Below are positions 41,145-49,272 of a DNA stretch of 64,000 nt, piece by piece (position 1 is the first letter of the stretch; each line of letters begins with the position of its first letter). Below the pieces are notes generated by a model, which saw only the letters and a list, made by a program, of their open reading frames with translations, had not been told where the DNA came from and ran no database searches. Both the position numbers and the translations under genes were made by a program. The stretch lies in the sequence record PQ036202; one strand, written 5' to 3'. Source of the DNA: Escherichia phage GEP101.

Positions 41145-41930
41145 ATGGGTATTGTAAAAATCATCAATGGGGATATCTTCTCCGCATTTGATAAAGGTAA
41201 GTTTGATATCATTGGTCACGGTTGCAACTGTATGAACTTAATGGGTGCAGGTATCGCTGACAAGATTTCTAAACTTTACCCAAAAGCATATGAGACTGAT
41301 ACAGAAGTTTATCTGTATGCAGGTGGTATAGGCCACAAACCCTGTGAAAATTTACTAGGTAATTTCTCTGTAGCACGTTTAGAACAAGGCCGTATAGCTA
41401 ACCTTTACACTCAGCTTAAGACTGGTAAAGATGCCCGATACAGTGCTTTAGAGTCATCTTTGAAACAGCTTAACAGATACTGTGAAGTCAATCAGTTGAA
41501 GAAAGTTGGGTTACCTATGATTGGCGCAGGTATCGGTGGGCTAGACCCTCAAGCCGTCACAGTTATCATTAATCAGGTGATGAAGAGCGTAGATGTTTAC
41601 CTGTATGTCTACGAGACAGAGATGTACAACGAGTTACACTCAGGTTGGAAGAACTACTGCGAACCGGAATACTTTGCAGGTGTAGTAACGTTCACAGACA
41701 ATACAGTTACCCTCTTCAGACGAAGAAAGGGTAAGGTACATCAAAGTAACCCTCCGGTTGAAAAGATGTCCCTAAGTAACGCTCTAGTTACCCACCTGTC
41801 GAAGAGCAATCACAGAATTGCCGTGACATTTGGCAGTGATGCAGATACGTATATCTATGCAAGAACTGATGAGGATGTTGAGGAAATTTTCTCTTCACAG
41901 GAAGTTACCTTCTTAGACGCAAAGAACTAA
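41145..41930 (+). CDS. macro-domain-like protein (putative ADP-ribose binding/processing)
   Basis: N-terminal INGDIF...DIIGHGCNCMNLMGAGIA resembles macro-domain core (GDIT...AIVNAAN...GGGV). Confidence 0.4.
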   Translation: MGIVKIINGDIFSAFDKGKFDIIGHGCNCMNLMGAGIADKISKLYPKAYETDTEVYLYAGGIGHKPCENLLGNFSVARLEQGRIANLYTQLKTGKDARYSALESSLKQLNRYCEVNQLKKVGLPMIGAGIGGLDPQAVTVIINQVMKSVDVYLYVYETEMYNELHSGWKNYCEPEYFAGVVTFTDNTVTLFRRRKGKVHQSNPPVEKMSLSNALVTHLSKSNHRIAVTFGSDADTYIYARTDEDVEEIFSSQEVTFLDAKN

Positions 41931-41989
41931 GAAACTCTGTAGGATATTCACAATAGACTAAGCCTTTCTTATCTGGTAAATTTTTCAGG

Positions 41990-42195
41990 TAAGGAGGGCT
42001 TTTTCATTTCAGGATTGTGCAGGTAGAGTTCTATAGAGAAATCTGTAGAGAGAATTTTGAACTCCAAAGAGAAAATTCATTTTCAAACTGTGCAGGTAAT
42101 CTCCAAAGAGCTTTTTCATTTTCAAAACGTGCAGAGAAAAATCAGGTCGGGCAAGAAAAATCATTTTAGAATTGTGCAGGTAGGTGGGTGCAGGT
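41990..42195. repeat. four ~40-bp direct repeats (TTTTCATTTTCAAA-CTGTGCAGGTA units)
   Basis: Repeated units beginning near 41990, 42060, 42102 and 42150, in a non-coding gap. Confidence 0.6.
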
Positions 42196-42359
42196 GGGGA
42201 TGTCGCCATTTCTCACAAGGCTACCACATCTGAAAAGAAAAGTCAACAGAAAAATTTGTAGCGGATTGAAAAATAATTCTTGATTGTAGTTCTGTTTTGT
42301 GGTAGTCGCGTGCGCCCGTTTCATTACAGTTTTTTGCCAAAATATTTTTAAAATTTTTC

Positions 42360-42452
42360 TTGACTATTCGAACGGGGTTATCTAGTATTTGCATCAACGG
42401 GGAGGAAATGACTTCCCCACTAAATAAAACCCTTAAACTAGGAGATTCTAAA
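42360..42452 (+). promoter_or_regulatory. promoter-hairpin-RBS cassette (type A, divergent copy)
   Basis: TTGACT-17-TAGTAT, GGGGAGG...CTTCCCC hairpin, conserved CCTTAAACTAGGAGATTCTAAAATG. Confidence 0.55.
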
Positions 42453-42644
42453 ATGGCATCAAGAAAAATCAAAGTTGGCGACGAGGTTAACGTAAAACAT
42501 GAATACTCTTACAAAATGTTAACTATTCGCTCTTACAAGGTTTATCAGGTGGAAGCTATCCACGAAGATGGAACATTTTCACTAAAAGGATATAGTGAAC
42601 GTTTCCCTGCTGAATTGTTCGAAAAATGGAGCACTAAAAAATGA
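42453..42644 (+). CDS. hypothetical small protein (cassette-array gene)
   Basis: Start reassigned to ATG 42453 behind conserved RBS. Confidence 0.55.
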   Translation: MASRKIKVGDEVNVKHEYSYKMLTIRSYKVYQVEAIHEDGTFSLKGYSERFPAELFEKWSTKK

Positions 42645-42847
42645 TTTACAGCCGTGAATTGATGGCCACAACTAACGTTAACACAAAGGTAAAACGTTTT
42701 TATATGCAAGTATGCGGCGCATGGCGTAGAATATCAGAATCTGACTATTGCAACTATGTAGAAACGGCTATTAATTCTAATTGCTATCTTACAAGAACTA
42801 CACGGAATTTTATAAAACATACAGCGGTTTACTATTACGATAAATAA
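42641..42847 (+). CDS. hypothetical small protein (cassette-array gene)
   Basis: ATGA start/stop overlap with previous gene. Confidence 0.45.
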   Translation: MIYSRELMATTNVNTKVKRFYMQVCGAWRRISESDYCNYVETAINSNCYLTRTTRNFIKHTAVYYYDK

Positions 42848-42935
42848 AAAGTACTTTACAAGGGGCTTAAAAGTTGATATCTTAAGCCCCAGAAAAAGAG
42901 CTTTACTAACAACCTTAAACTAGGAGATTCAAAAA
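42848..42935 (+). promoter_or_regulatory. type B intergenic element (palindrome + conserved RBS leader)
   Basis: AAAGTACTTTACA, 9-bp-stem palindrome GGGGCTTAA...TTAAGCCCC, AGAAAAAGAGCTTTA, CCTTAAACTAGGAGATTC; four copies. Confidence 0.5.
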
Positions 42936-43316
42936 ATGGCTTATCGTGCACCGAAATTCATCAACAAAGACAACTTTCGCAACGTACTGGAAAAGACACT
43001 TGATGAAAAATTTAACAGCAAATTGATTGTTGTTCACGCATTTAATTTCAAGTATGATATCAACGGGAATAAAATCAATCATTACACGGCAACAATGGTA
43101 GATGGTACACTATCAAGTGAAAAAGCCATACTGAATGCGCTTGCTGGACGTGGTAAAAACCTGATAAGATGTGATAAGAGACGTTATCAAGGCGGCGCAT
43201 ATGGTTATGATGATACTGTTTACCATCTTGAAAATATGGGCTATCAAGTAGAAAAAGCTGGAGTGTCGCAAATCATTGGTAGCGATGGTTATGTGACAAT
43301 CTTCAAAATTAAATAA
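42936..43316 (+). CDS. hypothetical protein (cassette-array gene)
   Basis: 126 aa behind type B element. Confidence 0.5.
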   Translation: MAYRAPKFINKDNFRNVLEKTLDEKFNSKLIVVHAFNFKYDINGNKINHYTATMVDGTLSSEKAILNALAGRGKNLIRCDKRRYQGGAYGYDDTVYHLENMGYQVEKAGVSQIIGSDGYVTIFKIK

Positions 43317-43405
43317 AAAGTACTTTACAGGGGGCTTATAAGGCTGTACAGTAAGCCCCAGATAAAGAGCTTTATCACTCAATCCTTAAACTAGGAGATT
43401 CAAAA
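43317..43405 (+). promoter_or_regulatory. type B intergenic element
   Basis: Copy 2 of palindrome + leader. Confidence 0.5.
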
Positions 43406-43918
43406 ATGAAAACTGTAGACGCTACCTTTGAAGTTGTAAAAGAAAAATTCACCATTATTTATGAGGCTGTTAATTGCTACGAAGCAAGCTATAATATGGA
43501 TAATTGGGAATTTACAAACAACCATAAAGGCGGGGTAACTATCAAAAATCCTAACTATCGACACAATGCATTTAAATATGCAATCCCTTTACATTACAGC
43601 CTAAAACAGCTTTCAAGTGACTATGCAAAACAAGGCCGTGAAAATCCATCGAAAGAGGCTTACATCAGCTTACAGAAAGAACTAGAAAGAGATTTAGAGG
43701 CTTCAGAATATTACCTATCTGCAAAAGTTGTAGACGCAAACGGGAAAACGGTTTTAGATAGTTTTTCTATTGGTTACGCTTTCGATTGGTGCTATAGCGA
43801 CGGCGTCGATTTAGCGGATAGACTAGAAGAGGAAGTGAGCAATTCAGGCGCAGAATCTGAAGTTATGGAACAATTAGAAGCCTTAAAAGATTCAGTGCTG
43901 AATATCTTTCAAAATTAA
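43406..43918 (+). CDS. hypothetical protein (cassette-array gene)
   Basis: 170 aa. Confidence 0.5.
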   Translation: MKTVDATFEVVKEKFTIIYEAVNCYEASYNMDNWEFTNNHKGGVTIKNPNYRHNAFKYAIPLHYSLKQLSSDYAKQGRENPSKEAYISLQKELERDLEASEYYLSAKVVDANGKTVLDSFSIGYAFDWCYSDGVDLADRLEEEVSNSGAESEVMEQLEALKDSVLNIFQN

Positions 43919-43934
43919 ATTAAGAGGAAACACC

Positions 43935-44267
43935 ATGTTAATGATGGGTATCACTGCAATCATCGCCATTATAGCACTTTACAAGGCTTATAGCGCATAT
44001 AATTTGGCAAGTAAGGCAATCACACAACAGGTTAGCGATAGCCTTGTAATGAGCTTTCTTGGGCGTTTAAGCGATGAGCAATTGAAACGGCTAGAAATGA
44101 GCTTCAGATTTCAATCAAAAACTTATCAAATCAGCGACATTTTCAAAGAGGATTTTCAGCTTGTCGATGATTATAACTCCCTGATAAATGCTTTAAATAT
44201 CAGTGACTTAAAAGATTATTACGCTGTAATTGTTCAAGAAATGAGCAAACGAAAACAAAACAGTTGA
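43935..44267 (+). CDS. hypothetical protein (cassette-array gene), N-terminal TM helix
   Basis: 110 aa, own AGAGGAAA RBS. Confidence 0.45.
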   Translation: MLMMGITAIIAIIALYKAYSAYNLASKAITQQVSDSLVMSFLGRLSDEQLKRLEMSFRFQSKTYQISDIFKEDFQLVDDYNSLINALNISDLKDYYAVIVQEMSKRKQNS

Positions 44268-44356
44268 CACTGATTTTTAGATATATTAAATTACACATCA
44301 ACGGGGAGGGAATGACCTCCCCCACTAAGTAAAACCTTAAACTAGGAGATTCAAAA
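44264..44356 (+). promoter_or_regulatory. promoter-hairpin-RBS cassette (type A)
   Basis: TTGACA-17-TAAATT, hairpin GGGGAGGGAATGACCTCCCCC, identical RBS/start context. Confidence 0.55.
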
Positions 44357-44629
44357 ATGTATACTACTAACAATGGCCGTACTCTAAATGTCACTCTACG
44401 CCACTATGTAGACGGCGTGATGAACTTTGAGGATTTACAAGCGGAACAACATATTTTGGATTGGCAACTTGCTGGATTCCAAAAAACTGCTACGGGATAT
44501 GGTAAAAAGATTCCAACTAGTTGGAAAGTATACTATAAAGGCCGTTTGCGCAGAATTTATCAGGATGTTTGCAGCAATAGCGCATCAACCTACATCATAG
44601 TAAAAGGTAAAAAATTACACTTAGTATAG
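44357..44629 (+). CDS. hypothetical small protein (cassette-array gene)
   Basis: 90 aa. Confidence 0.5.
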   Translation: MYTTNNGRTLNVTLRHYVDGVMNFEDLQAEQHILDWQLAGFQKTATGYGKKIPTSWKVYYKGRLRRIYQDVCSNSASTYIIVKGKKLHLV

Positions 44630-44717
44630 AGTACTTTATAAGGGGCTTATAGTTCGATAAAGTAAGCCCCAGAAAAAGAGCTTTATCGCATTAACCTTAA
44701 ACTAGGAGATTCAAAAA
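44630..44717 (+). promoter_or_regulatory. type B intergenic element
   Basis: Copy 3. Confidence 0.5.
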
Positions 44718-45122
44718 ATGGCTATCAATAAACGCGAGTTATCAATTTTAAAAGCACGTTTGACCGTTAACCGGATTAATGTTATCACGTCAGCAGCACC
44801 GGATGAAATACTACAAAACATTATTGGGAAGATTCAAAGTGTTATCTTAGACGTTGAAAGCGTAAAAAACTCACTGATTGACGTTGCAGCAGGTATCACG
44901 CTAGAAGGTGCACAATATGAAATGGTGGACATGTTAGGTAAATCTAAGGTAATGAATAGGGAGTTAGATTTGAAAATGTTTCGTTTTGCTGTTAAAGTAT
45001 GGCTATCCGTCGAGTATGGCGCGAATTTTGCAATCGCTGACTTTTTCGCAACATGGTTACAACGTAATTTGACAAATCATGATTTTCGTGATATCTGCGA
45101 TGCAATTTATGCAGAAATCTAA
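44718..45122 (+). CDS. hypothetical protein (cassette-array gene)
   Basis: 134 aa. Confidence 0.5.
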   Translation: MAINKRELSILKARLTVNRINVITSAAPDEILQNIIGKIQSVILDVESVKNSLIDVAAGITLEGAQYEMVDMLGKSKVMNRELDLKMFRFAVKVWLSVEYGANFAIADFFATWLQRNLTNHDFRDICDAIYAEI

Positions 45123-45132
45123 AAATTTTTTA

Positions 45133-45227
45133 TTGACACTGATTTTTAGATATATTAAATTACTAATCAACGGGGAGGGAATGACCTCCCCCACTAAGTA
45201 AAGTCCTTAAACTAGGAGATTCTAAAA
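45133..45227 (+). promoter_or_regulatory. promoter-hairpin-RBS cassette (type A)
   Basis: Near-identical to 44264-44356. Confidence 0.55.
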
Positions 45228-45425
45228 ATGGCTATTATTAACGGTTTAAACATTGAAACTACTCACATCAAAGATATCAAAGTCGGCGATATAGTCCTTT
45301 TTCACGGCGTAGAAAAAACCGTCACTGTAAAGGATATCAAAGAGGATTCTTTCATGGGCCGGACTCTTTTCGGTGATTCGTATTGCTTAGGCTATCTTGC
45401 AGTTTTAAAAGTTGTCAAAAATTAA
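45228..45425 (+). CDS. hypothetical small protein (cassette-array gene)
   Basis: 65 aa. Confidence 0.45.
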   Translation: MAIINGLNIETTHIKDIKVGDIVLFHGVEKTVTVKDIKEDSFMGRTLFGDSYCLGYLAVLKVVKN

Positions 45426-45518
45426 ATAAAAAGTACTTTACAGGGGGCTTAAAAGCTGATATCTTAAGCCCTAGATAAAGAGCTTTATCACTCAATCCTT
45501 AAACTAGGAGATTCTAAA
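45426..45518 (+). promoter_or_regulatory. type B intergenic element
   Basis: Copy 4. Confidence 0.5.
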
Positions 45519-46061
45519 ATGAAATGCTTTCACGGTACTACTCAAGAAAATTTTATCAACCTGATTAATAACGGTGATAAACCATCAGGCGCATGGAATT
45601 GTTCGGATATGGACGGGAATTTTTACGTTTATCCAGAAAATAAAATCTATGGCGACGATGAGGAAGAGATAATCTCTGAAGGTATCCAGCAAGCTCTGGG
45701 CAATGCCGCTATCACCGCAGCTTTCCAGATGAAAACTCAAAATATTGTTATCTTAGAACTTGATATTCCAGAAGATGAGTTAAATGATGATTATTCTTGC
45801 GATAATATGTCGAACATGGCAAGTTTTACGGAATATTTCGATTTAAACTGGATTAAAAAGGTTTATACCACTGAATTTAATGCTATGTTTTCGCCTTTTT
45901 GTCTTCCTTCACTGGATAACCCAAATTTAAATTATATTGATGAGTCTCTGGAACTTCTCGCTAAAAGCGTTCAACAGTTCGACAGTATTCAAGTTTTTTG
46001 GGACATCATGGACACACTGACGGGAAACATCGCAGAAAGAGATTTAAAGGGCTTTTTCTAA
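45519..46061 (+). CDS. hypothetical protein (cassette-array gene)
   Basis: 180 aa, acidic. Confidence 0.5.
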   Translation: MKCFHGTTQENFINLINNGDKPSGAWNCSDMDGNFYVYPENKIYGDDEEEIISEGIQQALGNAAITAAFQMKTQNIVILELDIPEDELNDDYSCDNMSNMASFTEYFDLNWIKKVYTTEFNAMFSPFCLPSLDNPNLNYIDESLELLAKSVQQFDSIQVFWDIMDTLTGNIAERDLKGFF

Positions 46062-46091
46062 AACCTATACAATCACCTTATAAACACTATT

Positions 46092-46113
46092 CAGCCCCTT
46101 GTAGGGGCTTTTA
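46092..46113 (+). terminator. rho-independent terminator
   Basis: AGCCCC-TTGT-AGGGGCT then TTTT. Confidence 0.55.
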
Positions 46114-46126
46114 AAGGGCTTAAAAC

Positions 46127-46360
46127 ATGCTTACAACCATTTATCTCATCCTTTCTATCTGTAACGGTCATTCATGTGATTTTAAAGGTCTCGAGGAGTT
46201 TACAGGGAGTAAAGAAAATGCTATTCAGGTTTGCCAGATAGCAAGACAAGACTACCCCGCCAGTGATGATATACAATGTTATTTTAAGACAGAAGACAGT
46301 GACGGCGTTTATTTTGACAGTGTTGACGGTCAATATGAAATTATCATAGAAAAAGACTAG
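46127..46360 (+). CDS. hypothetical small protein (cassette-array gene)
   Basis: 77 aa. Confidence 0.45.
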   Translation: MLTTIYLILSICNGHSCDFKGLEEFTGSKENAIQVCQIARQDYPASDDIQCYFKTEDSDGVYFDSVDGQYEIIIEKD

Positions 46361-46451
46361 ACAAGCCGGATAAAAGTCTGTAAATTACTAATTAACGGGG
46401 AGGGGATGACCTTCCCCACTAAGTAAAGCCCTTAAACTAGGAGATTCAAAA
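46358..46451 (+). promoter_or_regulatory. promoter-hairpin-RBS cassette (type A variant)
   Basis: TAGACA-17-TAAATT, hairpin GGGGAGGGGATGACCTTCCCC, conserved RBS. Confidence 0.5.
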
Positions 46452-46793
46452 ATGGCTTATGTAACCGTAATCACCGACAAGGTTGGCTCATCTTGGTCAA
46501 CTCAAGTAAGCGATAAGATGACACCTATGCAGTGCCTAAAATACTTTGAGCAATGGAATAAAGGCGAAGGTGTCAGCCCCTTTCAAGTGATGCGTATCGT
46601 TCACACTGACAAGGAAGGGAATAAAACGGCCTTAAATAGTGAGTACTACGCAACCAGATTCGAAACTAGAAGTAAAACAATGAAACTTTTACGTGAATCC
46701 GGTTATACCCATATCGCCGCATTAATCTGGGATGACTTGCTAAAAAACCAACGTATCAGCTATGTAAAACCTGAAAAAATATTTATCAGCTAA
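46452..46793 (+). CDS. hypothetical protein (cassette-array gene)
   Basis: 113 aa. Confidence 0.5.
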   Translation: MAYVTVITDKVGSSWSTQVSDKMTPMQCLKYFEQWNKGEGVSPFQVMRIVHTDKEGNKTALNSEYYATRFETRSKTMKLLRESGYTHIAALIWDDLLKNQRISYVKPEKIFIS

Positions 46794-46824
46794 TCAATAA
46801 CTTACAAAAAACTTTTAAAAAAGT

Positions 46825-46850
46825 GTTGACAATACCCCTTGACATTGGTA
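46825..46850 (+). promoter_or_regulatory. tandem TTGACA element (GTTGACAA-N5-CTTGACA)
   Basis: Same double-hexamer architecture as 9986 and 57046. Confidence 0.4.
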
Positions 46851-46923
46851 ATGTTGTTCGAGGGGGGTTTATCTAAAAGGGATTAACTTAAAAGATTCTT
46901 TATAGATAAACTTAAAAAATTGC

Positions 46924-47017
46924 TTGCAATCAGCTATCAAAACAAGTAAATTACTAATTAACGGGGAGGGGATGACCTTCCCCACTAAGTAAAGTCCTTA
47001 AACTAGGAGATTCAAAA
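46924..47017 (+). promoter_or_regulatory. promoter-hairpin-RBS cassette (type A variant)
   Basis: TTGCAA-17-TAAATT, hairpin, conserved RBS. Confidence 0.5.
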
Positions 47018-47548
47018 ATGAACAAGTTCAAAGCCATCAATTACATCCGCTCAAATAGTGTTATGTCAAAGCCTGTTAAAGACACCTATGAATTCCGTTG
47101 TAATGGTGTACACTTTGCAACCATCACCAAATCAGAAAACGGGGCTTATTACATTCATCGCCGTAATGTTGCAACCGTTGTAGTCTCTCATTTTATGCAA
47201 GCTGTCGCGGAACTCCTCCCGATGTTTTTAGGCCTTTACTTGGATGAGTGCAAAAACGTTCACAATCACGTTAAAAACCTTTTAAATAGTTATAAAATGG
47301 CTTATGAACGTTCTCTCAAGTCATTGAACAAGTTTTACAACGCACCTGAAAACACCATATCAATGGCCTATGCTGTAAATGGTGAAACAGTGAGTCTCTT
47401 TGAAGTGGAAAAAATCAAGCTGTACGATTTACTCCCTAGCGGTTACGCTAAAACCATCGGTGAAGGCTTAACGTTCAATATCAAGAACTTAGAAAAAACT
47501 TTAAAAGATATTGAAAAAGATATTGACGAGACAATCAAAAATCTATAA
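47018..47548 (+). CDS. hypothetical protein (cassette-array gene)
   Basis: 176 aa; last gene before non-coding repeat region. Confidence 0.5.
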   Translation: MNKFKAINYIRSNSVMSKPVKDTYEFRCNGVHFATITKSENGAYYIHRRNVATVVVSHFMQAVAELLPMFLGLYLDECKNVHNHVKNLLNSYKMAYERSLKSLNKFYNAPENTISMAYAVNGETVSLFEVEKIKLYDLLPSGYAKTIGEGLTFNIKNLEKTLKDIEKDIDETIKNL

Positions 47549-49272
47549 ATTGTCAATCAACGGGGCTAAAATAGCCCCAGATACCTTTTACAGCCCCTTT
47601 CCATATTGATTCGATAGAATCTATCTCATAGGGGCTTTTTTACGTCCTATCAAATCCCTTTCCCTTTCCCTTTCCAGAATCTATCCCACTAATTCGATAG
47701 AATCTATCTCATACCTTAAAAAGCAATAACTCTATAGCTTACTCTATAGCCTTTTATTAAATCAACTTAAATAAAAGCCAATACCCCCAGAAAGGGGATG
47801 GCCCATTTAAACGCTCTATAAAGCCCTATAACGGCCTTATTAACATAACTTAAGGGATTGCATTAACTCACCATTAAAAGCCCTTTATAAAGCTTTCTAG
47901 GGGCTTAAAAGAGCCTTAAAAGAATCTTATAAGGGTGTAAGCTTTATCATCTCGTTAGTTATCTTATTGGCATTGTTACAATTCCTAGTGAACTACTAAA
48001 AAGGGCTTGCTAGTGTCTTAAAAGTATGTTATAGGGGCTATAAAGTTGCTTAAAAGTAGCTTAAAAGTTACTTCAAAGTTACTTCAAAGTTACGTAAATG
48101 CTAGCCCCCTTAACAATTTCTTAACAAATCCTACAAAGTTATGCTTATTAGAGACTTGTTAGCAACTTGTTAGCCCCTTGTTAAATCTCTGTTAAAACCA
48201 TGTAAAGCCTTGTAAGAACCTTTGACATAGCCTTTAAAGCTCCTGAAAAGCCCTATAAAGAGCTTTCTACATAGTTGGGGTGCAATTACTAGGGAGAGAC
48301 TAAAAAGGGCTTATAAAGAGCTATAGAGAGCTTTTAAGAGGGCTATTTAAAGAATCACTAAGAGGGAAAGGGAACGATAAGAAAGAGATAGTGACCATGT
48401 TAATGGCTTGTTAAAAAGTTTAAACACTTGTTAGAAACTTGTTAATTATCTTAACAAAATAACTCTTAAAAATTAACTTCTTAACTCTTGTTAGTCATCT
48501 GTTAAGACTCTGTAAAGACCATGTAGCAACTGTTAAGGAACTGTTACATCCTTGTTAGTTCTGTTGAGAATCTGTTAAGACCTTTGAAGAGTTGTTAAGA
48601 AGATGTGAGAACTGTTAAGAGATTGTTAATGATATTTTAAAATTTTGCAAAGGGGGTGTTACAGGGATGTTAAGGGCTACCAAGCAGATATACATCTTTT
48701 ACAGATATTTTTGAGTTCCTTCAAAGACCCTAAAAAATGACTTGATAGTCCTATTTTATAAAAATTTTAAAATTCTGAATAATTACCTATACAGTCTTCT
48801 AAAAATACAGGCATAAACAGGCTTATAAGATACCTTGTTAATACCGTGTTAGACCTTGTGAGATAAGGTCTGCAAAGATATTCCTGTTAAGTTTGTTAAA
48901 ACAGTCTATATAGAGGCTTAGTAATACCTAGTGAACACCTATAGAGGGTAACATAGCTGACATAGAGATTAAGAGGTGTATAGGGGCTTCTAAGAGGTTA
49001 TAGAGAGATGGTTAAGGTGATTGTATAGGTTGTTAAGAAGGCTTGTTAGAAGAGTGTTTAGAAGGGCTATACAGAGGGGCTATTAAGACCACTAGATAGA
49101 TACTAAGATACTATATAGTACTATATAACTATATATAGAGAGTAAGCTTAAGAAGGTTGTTAAGAAGGGTAGATATTTTTATTCACATATGATGGTGACC
49201 CAGAGGTTGGGACAACCGATGAAATTTTATAAAAATTAAAAAGCCCCCAATTAAGGAGGCTCTTAAGATATT
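47549..49272. repeat. 1.7-kb ORF-free region with arrays of ~11-bp phased short motifs
   Basis: No ORF of 60 aa or more on any frame; TGTTAAG/TGTTAGC-type runs at ~11-bp spacing (48150-48200, 48400-48650), TATAAAGAG/TAAGAGG runs (48240-48360, 48910-49140), 11-bp x5 repeat at 48030-48100, 21-bp direct repeat at ~47608/47693, (CCCTTT)3. Confidence 0.7.

Follow-up and report, generated by a model that had tools for sequence, protein, structure and literature searches.

Promoter-like, hairpin and leader cassettes repeated in a variable small-gene array of Escherichia phage GEP101 and other Ounavirinae

Here we describe an array of about 5 kb in Escherichia phage GEP101 (sequence record PQ036202), lying in a stretch of 64,000 nucleotides (nt) that is called the window below. 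It holds 12 small open reading frames (ORFs) in nine expression units, with terminators at both ends, and every unit is headed by a cassette of one of two classes, each combining a sigma70-like promoter, a hairpin and one and the same leader with its ribosome-binding site (RBS). The cassettes are repeats confined to the array, their promoter-critical bases and hairpins are conserved, genes and cassettes are re-assorted among relatives, some junctions are chimeric, and the copies evolve in concert. The whole is probably a hyperplastic early-gene array in which swappable cassettes, resembling the promoter early stem-loop (PeSL) cassettes of T4-type phages (Arbiol et al., 2010, PMC2839356; Comeau et al., 2014, PMC4122927), are at once units of expression and points of recombination.

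The window comes from a Felixounavirus, i.e., a Felix O1-like myovirus of Escherichia and Salmonella: 236 phage records matched it, the top ones being 86-92% identical, and the counterpart of the array in Felix O1 is ORF14-23. For the comparisons we used 38 arrays, namely that of the window, 11 from GenBank phages and 26 from IMG/VR contigs. The Felix O1 genome paper lists elements of 57 bp and 39 bp solely as direct repeats (PMC3185647), and no paper analysing the cassettes in Ounavirinae was found within an incomplete searchable literature.

An earlier note on this DNA, made from the letters alone, had seen about a dozen ORFs behind almost identical units of some 90 bp. The dozen is correct, but a cassette stands before only nine of the 12 ORFs. 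The five starts that it gave (42453, 44357, 45228, 46452 and 47018), together with their repeated leader, lie where it placed them and correspond to the cassettes called type A here, whereas the four type B cassettes, before 42936, 43406, 44718 and 45519, had been overlooked. The repeat is real and its likeness was overstated, since identity to the reference copy ranges from 69 to 99% over 75 nt; the promoter TTGACA-17-TAAATT is exact at 44264 and 45133, but the other three type A promoters deviate from it (Table 1).

Table 1. Features of the array and its boundaries in the window (RBS, ribosome-binding site unit; pI, isoelectric point; promoters are given as -35, spacer length in bp and -10)
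Feature	Position	Strand	Details
Left boundary	41960..42010	+	intrinsic terminator of the upstream macro-domain gene (terminator scan)
Type A cassette 1	42360..42452	+	TTGACT-17-TAGTAT; hairpin 42399-42418; RBS 42431-42448
g01 and coupled g02	42453..42847	+	g01, 63 aa, start 42453; g02, 68 aa, 42641-42847
Type B cassette 1	42845..42935	+	hairpin 42845-42906; TTTACA (42855)-17-TATCTT; RBS 42913-42930
g03	42936..43316	+	126 aa
Type B cassette 2	43314..43405	+	hairpin 43314-43375; TTTACA (43324)-17-TACAGT; RBS 43384-43401
g04 and g05	43406..44267	+	g04, 170 aa; g05, 110 aa, 43935-44267, own Shine-Dalgarno sequence, without cassette
Type A cassette 2	44264..44356	+	TTGACA-17-TAAATT; hairpin 44303-44322; RBS 44335-44352
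g06	44357..44629	+	90 aa
Type B cassette 3	44625..44717	+	hairpin 44625-44686; TTTATA (44635)-17-TAAAGT; RBS 44695-44712
g07	44718..45122	+	134 aa; found in 38/38 arrays
Type A cassette 3	45133..45227	+	TTGACA-17-TAAATT; hairpin 45172-45191; RBS 45205-45222
g08	45228..45425	+	65 aa
Type B cassette 4	45427..45518	+	hairpin 45427-45488; TTTACA (45437)-17-TATCTT; TG at -15/-14; RBS 45497-45514
g09	45519..46061	+	180 aa; pI 4.1; predicted ADP-ribosyltransferase-like fold
g09/g10 spacer hairpin	46093..46112	+	AGCCCCT-TGT-AGGGGCT and short T run, attenuator-like
g10	46127..46360	+	77 aa; pI 4.1
Type A cassette 4	46358..46451	+	TAGACA-17-TAAATT; hairpin 46397-46417; RBS 46430-46447
g11	46452..46793	+	113 aa
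Type A cassette 5	46924..47017	+	TTGCAA-17-TAAATT; hairpin 46963-46983; RBS 46996-47013
g12	47018..47548	+	176 aa
Cassette remnant	47523..47580	+	type A promoter TTGACG-17-TAAATT fused at CAACGGGG to terminal hairpin GGGGCTAAAATAGCCCC
Right boundary	47592..47642	+	terminator-like hairpin, then T6

Two cassette classes with one leader

The most uniform part of the cassettes is their 3' end. The RBS unit CCTTAAACTAGGAGATTC occurs nine times with 0 mismatches, always on the + strand and always within 42431-47013, where 0.04 copies are expected; at least nine copies were reached in 0 of 100 shuffles. At all nine cassettes it belongs to a common module made of an AU-rich leader and then CCTTAAACTAGGAGATTC(A/T)AAA(A)ATG, with GGAG placed 8 nt before the ATG, and the leader carries stop codons in two frames. 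The unit can form a weak mini-hairpin of 3-4 bp, (U)CC(U)-UAAACU-(A)GG(A), that covers the Shine-Dalgarno (SD) sequence (-2 to -4.6 kcal/mol). Of two RBS alleles found among relatives, one has a paired U...A insertion, which lengthens the mini-hairpin by one base pair; in the phages of Erwinia and Hafnia this position reads CCUU/AAGG or CCUC/GAGG.

Such a leader, alone or together with the hairpins, could be recognised by some factor of phage or host origin, such as an endonuclease or a repressor of translation, that switches the early set jointly, an idea also attached to RegA and RegB of T4. The 18-25 nt identical at nine genes go beyond what the SD sequence needs, and the pairing of CCU(U) with it is kept across genera with paired changes. 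Furthermore, the announcement of the Mordin genome noted a 26-bp leader repeat and likened it to the start-associated sequences of mycobacteriophages, of unknown role; a similar idea has been raised for those of cluster K (Pope et al., 2011, PMC3203893). However, the extended identity needs no more than recent gene conversion, the mini-hairpin is weak and no candidate factor has been identified. We regard this explanation as quite unlikely, and recognition of the leader may be an added function rather than an alternative one.

The likeness between genes also touches their second codons: ATG GCT (Met-Ala) opens five of the nine cassette genes (42453, 42936, 44718, 45228 and 46452) and ATG AAA two, a bias that may come either from selection for efficient initiation or from cassette homology extending into the first codons.

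Both cassette classes are about 95 bp long. In type A, a sigma70-like promoter (TTGACA-like -35, 17 bp, TAAATT) is followed after 10 nt by a G/C hairpin of 7-8 bp and then by the standard leader with its RBS. The hairpin block AACGGGGAGGGRATGACCTYCCCCACTAAGTAAA is present in four exact copies, with 0 expected, the fifth copy (42396-42428) being a diverged variant, and ACTAAGTAAA stands directly 3' of the hairpin. In the window the whole leader folds at -14.6 to -20.3 kcal/mol (z -2.4 to -2.7). The geometry is regular among 175 copies, with a 17-bp spacer in 145 and a gap of 10 nt between -10 and hairpin in 133. Moreover, all type A-like variants fold at the same place, 9-11 nt past the -10, despite several unrelated stems (GGGGAGGG.., GGGGGGCG.., GGGCAATCAAGCCC, GGGAAACATCCC and GGGGCAAGATAAAGCCCC, as well as GGTTCAGCACTGAACC in a Hafnia phage), and the sense-strand fold is modestly stabler than the antisense one (p = 5e-7). 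The DNA before the -35 is AT-rich, as in aaaatttttc-TTGACT (42350), aaaaatttttta-TTGACA (45121) and ttaaaaaattgc-TTGCAA (46912), with aaataaaaag before type B; the tract is less pronounced at 46358, the -35 there overlapping the 3' end of g10.

The earlier note had suggested that this hairpin might be a shared translational operator, which is not favoured by the comparison. Because unrelated stems share the position and the type B genes lack that hairpin, the hairpin looks more like a structural element of the 5' end than like an operator read by its sequence. If an operator exists, the shared RBS unit is a better candidate than the hairpin.

The loops of the type A hairpins (44312-44332 and its equivalents) hold an ATG after GGAGG, because of which Felix O1 ORF19 and the fBSPA4 homologues have been annotated 15 codons too long (L001 3484; L010 2496, 3359). 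A functional mini-ORF of six codons starting there (MTSPTK and a stop) was considered and rejected, as the loop variants GATAAC and AGTAAC have no ATG. The same ATG had made the ORFs of 90 aa (44357) and 65 aa (45228) appear as one family; this is an artefact of ORF calling, since BLASTP finds no similarity between them and they belong to different PHROGs.

Type B is built otherwise. It begins at the stop codon of the preceding gene, and its promoter, TTTACA-17-TAnnnT, lies within an interrupted palindrome of about 60-62 nt that is followed by the same RBS unit as in type A. From the outside inwards, the helix consists of 6 bp, a 1x1 mismatch, a middle segment of 5 bp, a 3x3 internal loop, an inner G/C segment of 8-9 bp and a 13-nt loop, with 19 pairs across the three segments. 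TTTACA is split between the middle helix and the internal loop, and TAnnnT lies in the terminal loop and on the first base of the 3' arm. The window copies fold at -18.6 to -21.7 kcal/mol (z -2.9 to -5.2), and a fold of about -22 kcal/mol is found in all 63 distinct variants.

Conservation in type B bears on both the promoter and the pairing. Among 199 copies from 38 genomes, 198 have TTTACA as -35, the spacer is of 17 bp, and in the -10 the first T (192 copies), the second-position A (192) and the final T (193) are kept while positions 3-5 are nearly random; a G stands at -14 in 176. T34, A35 and T39 are invariant among the 63 distinct sequences, which come from three genera and have a mean column identity of 87%. 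G-14 and the T1, A2 and T6 of the -10 are the positions that matter most to sigma70. Several of these promoter-critical bases are unpaired in the hairpin, so that pairing cannot account for their conservation. In turn, 97% of the cells of the 63-sequence alignment are paired, three pairs (7-57, 20-44 and 3-61) show compensatory changes, and the covariation score was reached in 0 of 500 shuffles, slid registers all being far worse.

The same helix could be read as no promoter at all, but as an intercistronic hairpin, of RNase III type or stabilising 3' ends, in a long early transcript that would begin at the first cassette or at the type A promoters, the -35/-10 likeness being a by-product. Its interrupted build of about 20 bp, its stability in all variants, its compensatory changes and its constant place directly after a stop codon would suit such a role, and its dimensions resemble those of the RNase III sites of T7. 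The hairpins between the T7 early genes have helices of about 20 bp interrupted by an internal loop, and their cleavage leaves a protective 3' hairpin; type B matches them in having a helix of about two turns between cistrons, a likeness that is structural only, and unlike type B they are without promoters. Nevertheless, the unpaired loop retains G-14, T-12 and A-11 (with T-7 at the stem edge) while other loop positions vary, and the CA of TTTACA is kept in the internal loop where no pairing needs it. This makes a type B without promoter function unlikely in our view; besides, promoter and RNA roles are not mutually exclusive.

Re-assortment of genes and cassettes among relatives

Type A was found in 251 phage records (Felixounavirus, Mooglevirus, Suspvirus) and type B in 274, including Kolesnikvirus phages of Erwinia and Hafnia, and all the cassette-bearing records are Ounavirinae. 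In a complete relative of 85.8 kb, 12 RBS units, four type A hairpins and six of type B all lie in one 6-kb stretch and on one strand. Between Felixounavirus and Mooglevirus-like arrays, type B identity is 0.80 against 0.70 for the genes, type B being higher in 669 of 717 comparisons, and type A identity is 0.75 against 0.69.

Further cassette classes occur in the Kolesnikvirus array of Erwinia phage Pistou (L011, 2500-9075), which has its own standard leader, CAACCCTTAWAAAGGAATC. In one of them, TTGCAA-AGGGGTTA...TAACCCC, the hairpin covers the spacer and the -10; in another, TTGACA...GAGGGG-TTAAAAT-CCCCTC, the hairpin loop is the -10.

Across the 38 arrays there are 35 distinct gene-order strings: cassettes are kept while gene content varies, which supports the comparison with mobile PeSL-like cassettes made in the earlier note. 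The converse pattern that an alignment of relatives might have given, with the same ORFs in the same order behind diverged leaders, was not seen in these arrays. Indeed, one gene may stand behind either class depending on the genome. This holds for g03 (15 times behind A, 18 behind B), g09 (4 and 32), g08 (24 and 2), y12 (7 and 3), y17 (2 and 4) and g11 (27 and 5, with no cassette in 6). Array L019 reads g07-A-g08-B-y12-B-g09 and L025 reads g07-A-y12-B-g08-B-g09, so that the genes are exchanged and the A-B-B slots fixed; in L023, g08 is lost and its former type A cassette now precedes g09. A g01 homologue is found at a different position in Mordin and in L039. In the latter, y03 and its type B cassette are duplicated in tandem, and Citrobacter phage Mordin (L012) has two tandem type B cassettes with no ORF between them (1140-1257); both cases look like unequal exchange between cassettes.

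The window itself keeps traces of such events. The cassette at 43314-43405 is chimeric: its 5' part, which has a rare loop allele, corresponds to the cassette that precedes y03 in L006, and its 3' part to the one that follows y03. Judging by these matches, it has the form expected after a crossover between two type B cassettes, with y03 lost. At 47562, a type A promoter is joined to the terminal hairpin via 8 shared nt, CAACGGGG, a fusion that removes y09 and y04, whereas relatives carry y09 and/or y04 there. The array is also mosaic, the nearest relative of the window shifting gene by gene, and L005 and L016 differ only in g09.

Concerted evolution is seen in type A, whose copies have an identity of 0.839 at different positions of the same genome, 0.836 at orthologous positions of different genomes and 0.812 when both position and genome differ; the difference between 0.839 and 0.812 was reached in 0 of 2000 permutations. 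Likewise, the RBS allele with two extra bases occupies 9/9 sites of the window, and the other allele is found at every site in Mordin and at most sites in L002 and L003.

Proposed working of the cassettes and points against it

From these features we infer promoter activity, start sites, roles for the hairpins and a homologous nature of the recombination. Host RNA polymerase would start about 7 nt past each predicted -10, that is, near 42395, 44299, 45168, 46393 and 46959 for type A and near 42890, 43359, 44670 and 45472 for type B. The type A mRNA would then have its hairpin 2-4 nt from the predicted 5' end, and a stem-loop this close to the 5' end is a geometry known to block 5'-end-dependent mRNA decay. 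The hairpin in the 5' untranslated region of ompA is a 5'-terminal stabilising stem-loop of the same geometry, the 5' end being predicted from the -10 in our case. Most plausibly, the type A hairpin is a protective or insulating structure of the 5' end.

Type B would be an extended -10 sigma70 promoter (TTTACA, 17 bp, (T)GnTAnnnT), with a predicted start within the 3' side of the palindrome; therefore, the complete helix of about 20 bp would form only in RNA read through from upstream. There it is most plausibly an attenuator, a processing site or a hairpin protecting 3' ends, which would decouple neighbouring units. In reverse transcription PCR of Felix O1, ORF16, 20, 21 and 22, the orthologues of g04, g07, g11 and g12, are maximal 5 min post infection (PMC3185647), and both cassette types would therefore drive early genes.

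In addition, direct repeats of 60-100 bp would be substrates for homologous recombination, and it is as direct repeats that the cassettes would also be recombination points. Exchange within a genome would give deletion, duplication and gene conversion, and exchange between co-infecting relatives would give gene replacement and the re-pairing of genes with cassettes.

Several points weigh against this picture. Regarding transcription, Felix O1 ORF17, 19 and 23 (orthologues of y02, g06 and y04) peak at 25 min and not at 5 (PMC3185647), and no usable transcription-start, 3'-end or RNA-seq data were found for Felix O1-like phages, the promoters being predicted. The region contains 26 promoter-like sequences against 23.2 expected from shuffles; because the scan gives no excess, the promoter case rests on conservation and not on the scan. 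Neither hairpin type is followed by a U tract, and canonical termination is not expected. The sense and antisense folds of type B are alike (-21.9 and -21.1 kcal/mol, p = 0.19), which leaves an RNA role and a DNA-level role undistinguished; G.U pairs in type B, considered as proof of a sense-strand RNA, are unsupported on the same ground. Regarding recombination, the concerted-evolution signal of type B is marginal (85 of 2000 permutations), the backbone gene order is largely conserved across the 38 arrays, and y02 was lost from the window (43919-43934) via a microhomology of 3-4 nt only, outside any cassette pair. Nor does breakpoint location alone prove a recombination hotspot, because an indel of a whole gene is viable only if it breaks between genes, and the DNA between genes is nearly all cassette in this array.

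The backbone order, the microhomology deletion and the constraint on breakpoints would equally be expected if the cassettes were purely regulatory and gene gain and loss came from illegitimate recombination plus selection for intact genes, with no role in mobility. This is rather unlikely, as it leaves aside the joining of one cassette's 5' part with the next one's 3' part at 43314-43405, the exchange of g08 and y12 within a fixed A-B-B order, the occurrence of one gene behind A in some genomes and B in others, and the presence of a derived two-indel RBS allele at every window position together with the likeness of type A copies within genomes.

A reading of the hairpins as ordinary Rho-independent terminators that separate independent genes is suggested by their G/C-rich stems and intergenic place, by the GenBank record of XTG1, which annotates a 'terminator' under a type A match, and by the PeSL stem-loop, which lowered lacZ read-through in T4-type phages. 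However, CCCCACTAAGTAAA follows type A and CCCCAGATAAAGAG type B in place of a U tract, and genuine terminators with T runs flank the array. Intrinsic termination at the cassettes was accordingly rejected, as 0/9 were recovered in the terminator scan and ACTAAGTAAA and AGATAAAGAG follow the hairpins, and we hold this explanation to be highly improbable. In bacteria, promoter-coupled terminators likewise show stem-loop DNA overlapping a promoter between tandem genes (Fletcher et al., 2026, preprint, doi 10.64898/2026.08.19.745784), one element serving the upstream and the downstream unit; there, the -35 is provided by the stem-loop and the -10 comes after a T tract, whereas here the hairpin extends from the -35 to past the start and has no T tract.

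Finally, the palindromes of type B, possibly along with the hairpins of type A, might act as recombination sites recognised by their structure, which would form in single-stranded DNA while it replicates or recombines, with integron-like excision, capture and reordering of genes as small circles; the A-B-B swap would then be a site-specific exchange. The array shares with integrons the uniform orientation of the ORFs and, in type B, an imperfect palindrome for each. Against this, no IntI or tyrosine recombinase, nor any other integrase or recombinase, is annotated in the whole genome of one complete relative, and attC sites conserve structure while their sequence varies, which type B, with its high column identity across three genera, fails to do. 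Both this nature of the sites and such a mode of exchange seem very unlikely, and swappable cassettes exchanged by homologous recombination remain our preferred reading.

Related systems, array genes and meaning

Small accessory genes with their own promoter and a flanking hairpin are also known as the morons of lambdoid phages; these are single unrelated insertions, often expressed from the prophage, whereas the regulatory parts here are homogenised repeats in a lytic phage. The closer parallel is with PeSL cassettes. Both have a sigma70-type early promoter with AT-rich DNA upstream (here as consensus matches at 9/9 cassettes, with predicted activity), a G/C stem-loop whose position is specific to the subclass (in type A, 10 nt past the -10; in type B, from the -35 to beyond the -10), and the SD sequence and start codon of a small ORFan at the 3' end; both lie in hyperplastic regions where flanking genes differ between close relatives, the indels being bounded by cassettes in our case. 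The phages are different, as Ounavirinae have genomes of about 86 kb and are not T4-type, and the likeness is one of kind and not of descent. Furthermore, the array holds 9-13 copies, against about 50 over several regions for PeSLs, with only two sharp classes and one standardised leader/RBS, and the type B stem-loop is a three-segment helix of about 60 nt around the whole promoter. Promoter and terminator activity, as well as mini-circles, have been demonstrated for PeSLs; the cassettes described here are known from sequence alone.

Cluster K mycobacteriophages have start-associated sequences (SAS) and extended SAS (ESAS), which resemble the RBS unit in being SD-containing motifs placed just before many starts in a single orientation, about half of the SAS having an inverted repeat immediately upstream (PMC3203893). 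No sequence relationship is expected, and hosts and SD contexts differ. The authors of that work found little support for an mRNA hairpin, whereas compensatory changes support pairing here, and SAS genes are spread genome-wide and unlinked to sigma70 promoters.

As for the genes of the array, the coding sequences had rightly been seen as unrelated: the 12 proteins have no mutual similarity and fall into 12 different PHROG families. Nine follow a cassette, the two at 42641 and 43935 are linked to the gene before them by translational coupling, and the one at 46127 comes after a separate hairpin, which is the sole non-cassette intergenic element of the array and whose stem is kept and loop varied by relatives. 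None of the ORFs gave a Pfam match above threshold, a named PHROG or a sequence match in the PDB. For g09, the homologues found in the search are confined to Ounavirinae, with H5-G6-T7 nearly invariant (in at least 90% of sequences) and Y36/Y38 invariant. Foldseek gave weak agreement with an ADP-ribosyltransferase-like fold (E of at least 0.04), and the likenesses listed include PARPs, DarT and Arr; this resemblance is a lead and no assignment.

The spacer of 130 nt between g11 and the last type A cassette (46794-46923) is itself structured: its + strand folds at -32 kcal/mol (z -4.6; 0 of 200 shuffles as stable), its - strand has no strong fold (z -1.1), and it contains TTGACA-17-TAATGT (46826-46854) within a CCCC...GGGG hairpin. 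Candidate readings are a third type of cassette, a small RNA and a structured leader.

The left neighbour of the array is a so-called phosphatase gene (41145-41930) that bears a Macro domain, and the sequence of its terminator is t13 of the Felix O1 paper (PMC3185647). Between this terminator and the first array promoter (42000-42215) there are 4-5 copies of a repeat of 35-45 nt ending in ...CATTTTCAAAnTGTGCAGGTA, which could be regulator-binding sites. On the right, the boundary hairpin stands about 470 nt ahead of 48109-48683, a segment that matches, at 86% identity, what is annotated as the direct terminal repeat of phage UAB_69. Overlapping this homologue, 47650-48700 is dense in short repeats with an 11-bp period (CTTAAAAG..., TGTTAAGA...), the genes on either side point transcription toward it, and it is probably a genome end or packaging region. 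A search of 41900-48800 against Rfam gave nothing meaningful, and no Rfam family matches type B.

What is new here is the occurrence of PeSL-like cassettes in a second phage lineage, with no unexpected mechanism. Promoter/stem-loop cassettes that would serve as expression units and as joints for gene shuffling are thus not peculiar to T4-type phages. In type B, promoter-critical bases lie in the loop and the internal loop of a conserved helix, which would make it a case of overlapping DNA and RNA codes. The two classes offer a compact natural set of modules for enterobacteria, joining promoter, 5' structure and RBS, and the cassette boundaries would be tolerated insertion points for engineering. 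The Felix O1 group, whose variable early region is organised in this way, is widely used in Salmonella typing and biocontrol; the result pinpoints where its accessory early genes would be exchanged, and those genes are natural candidates for functions in host takeover or anti-defence.

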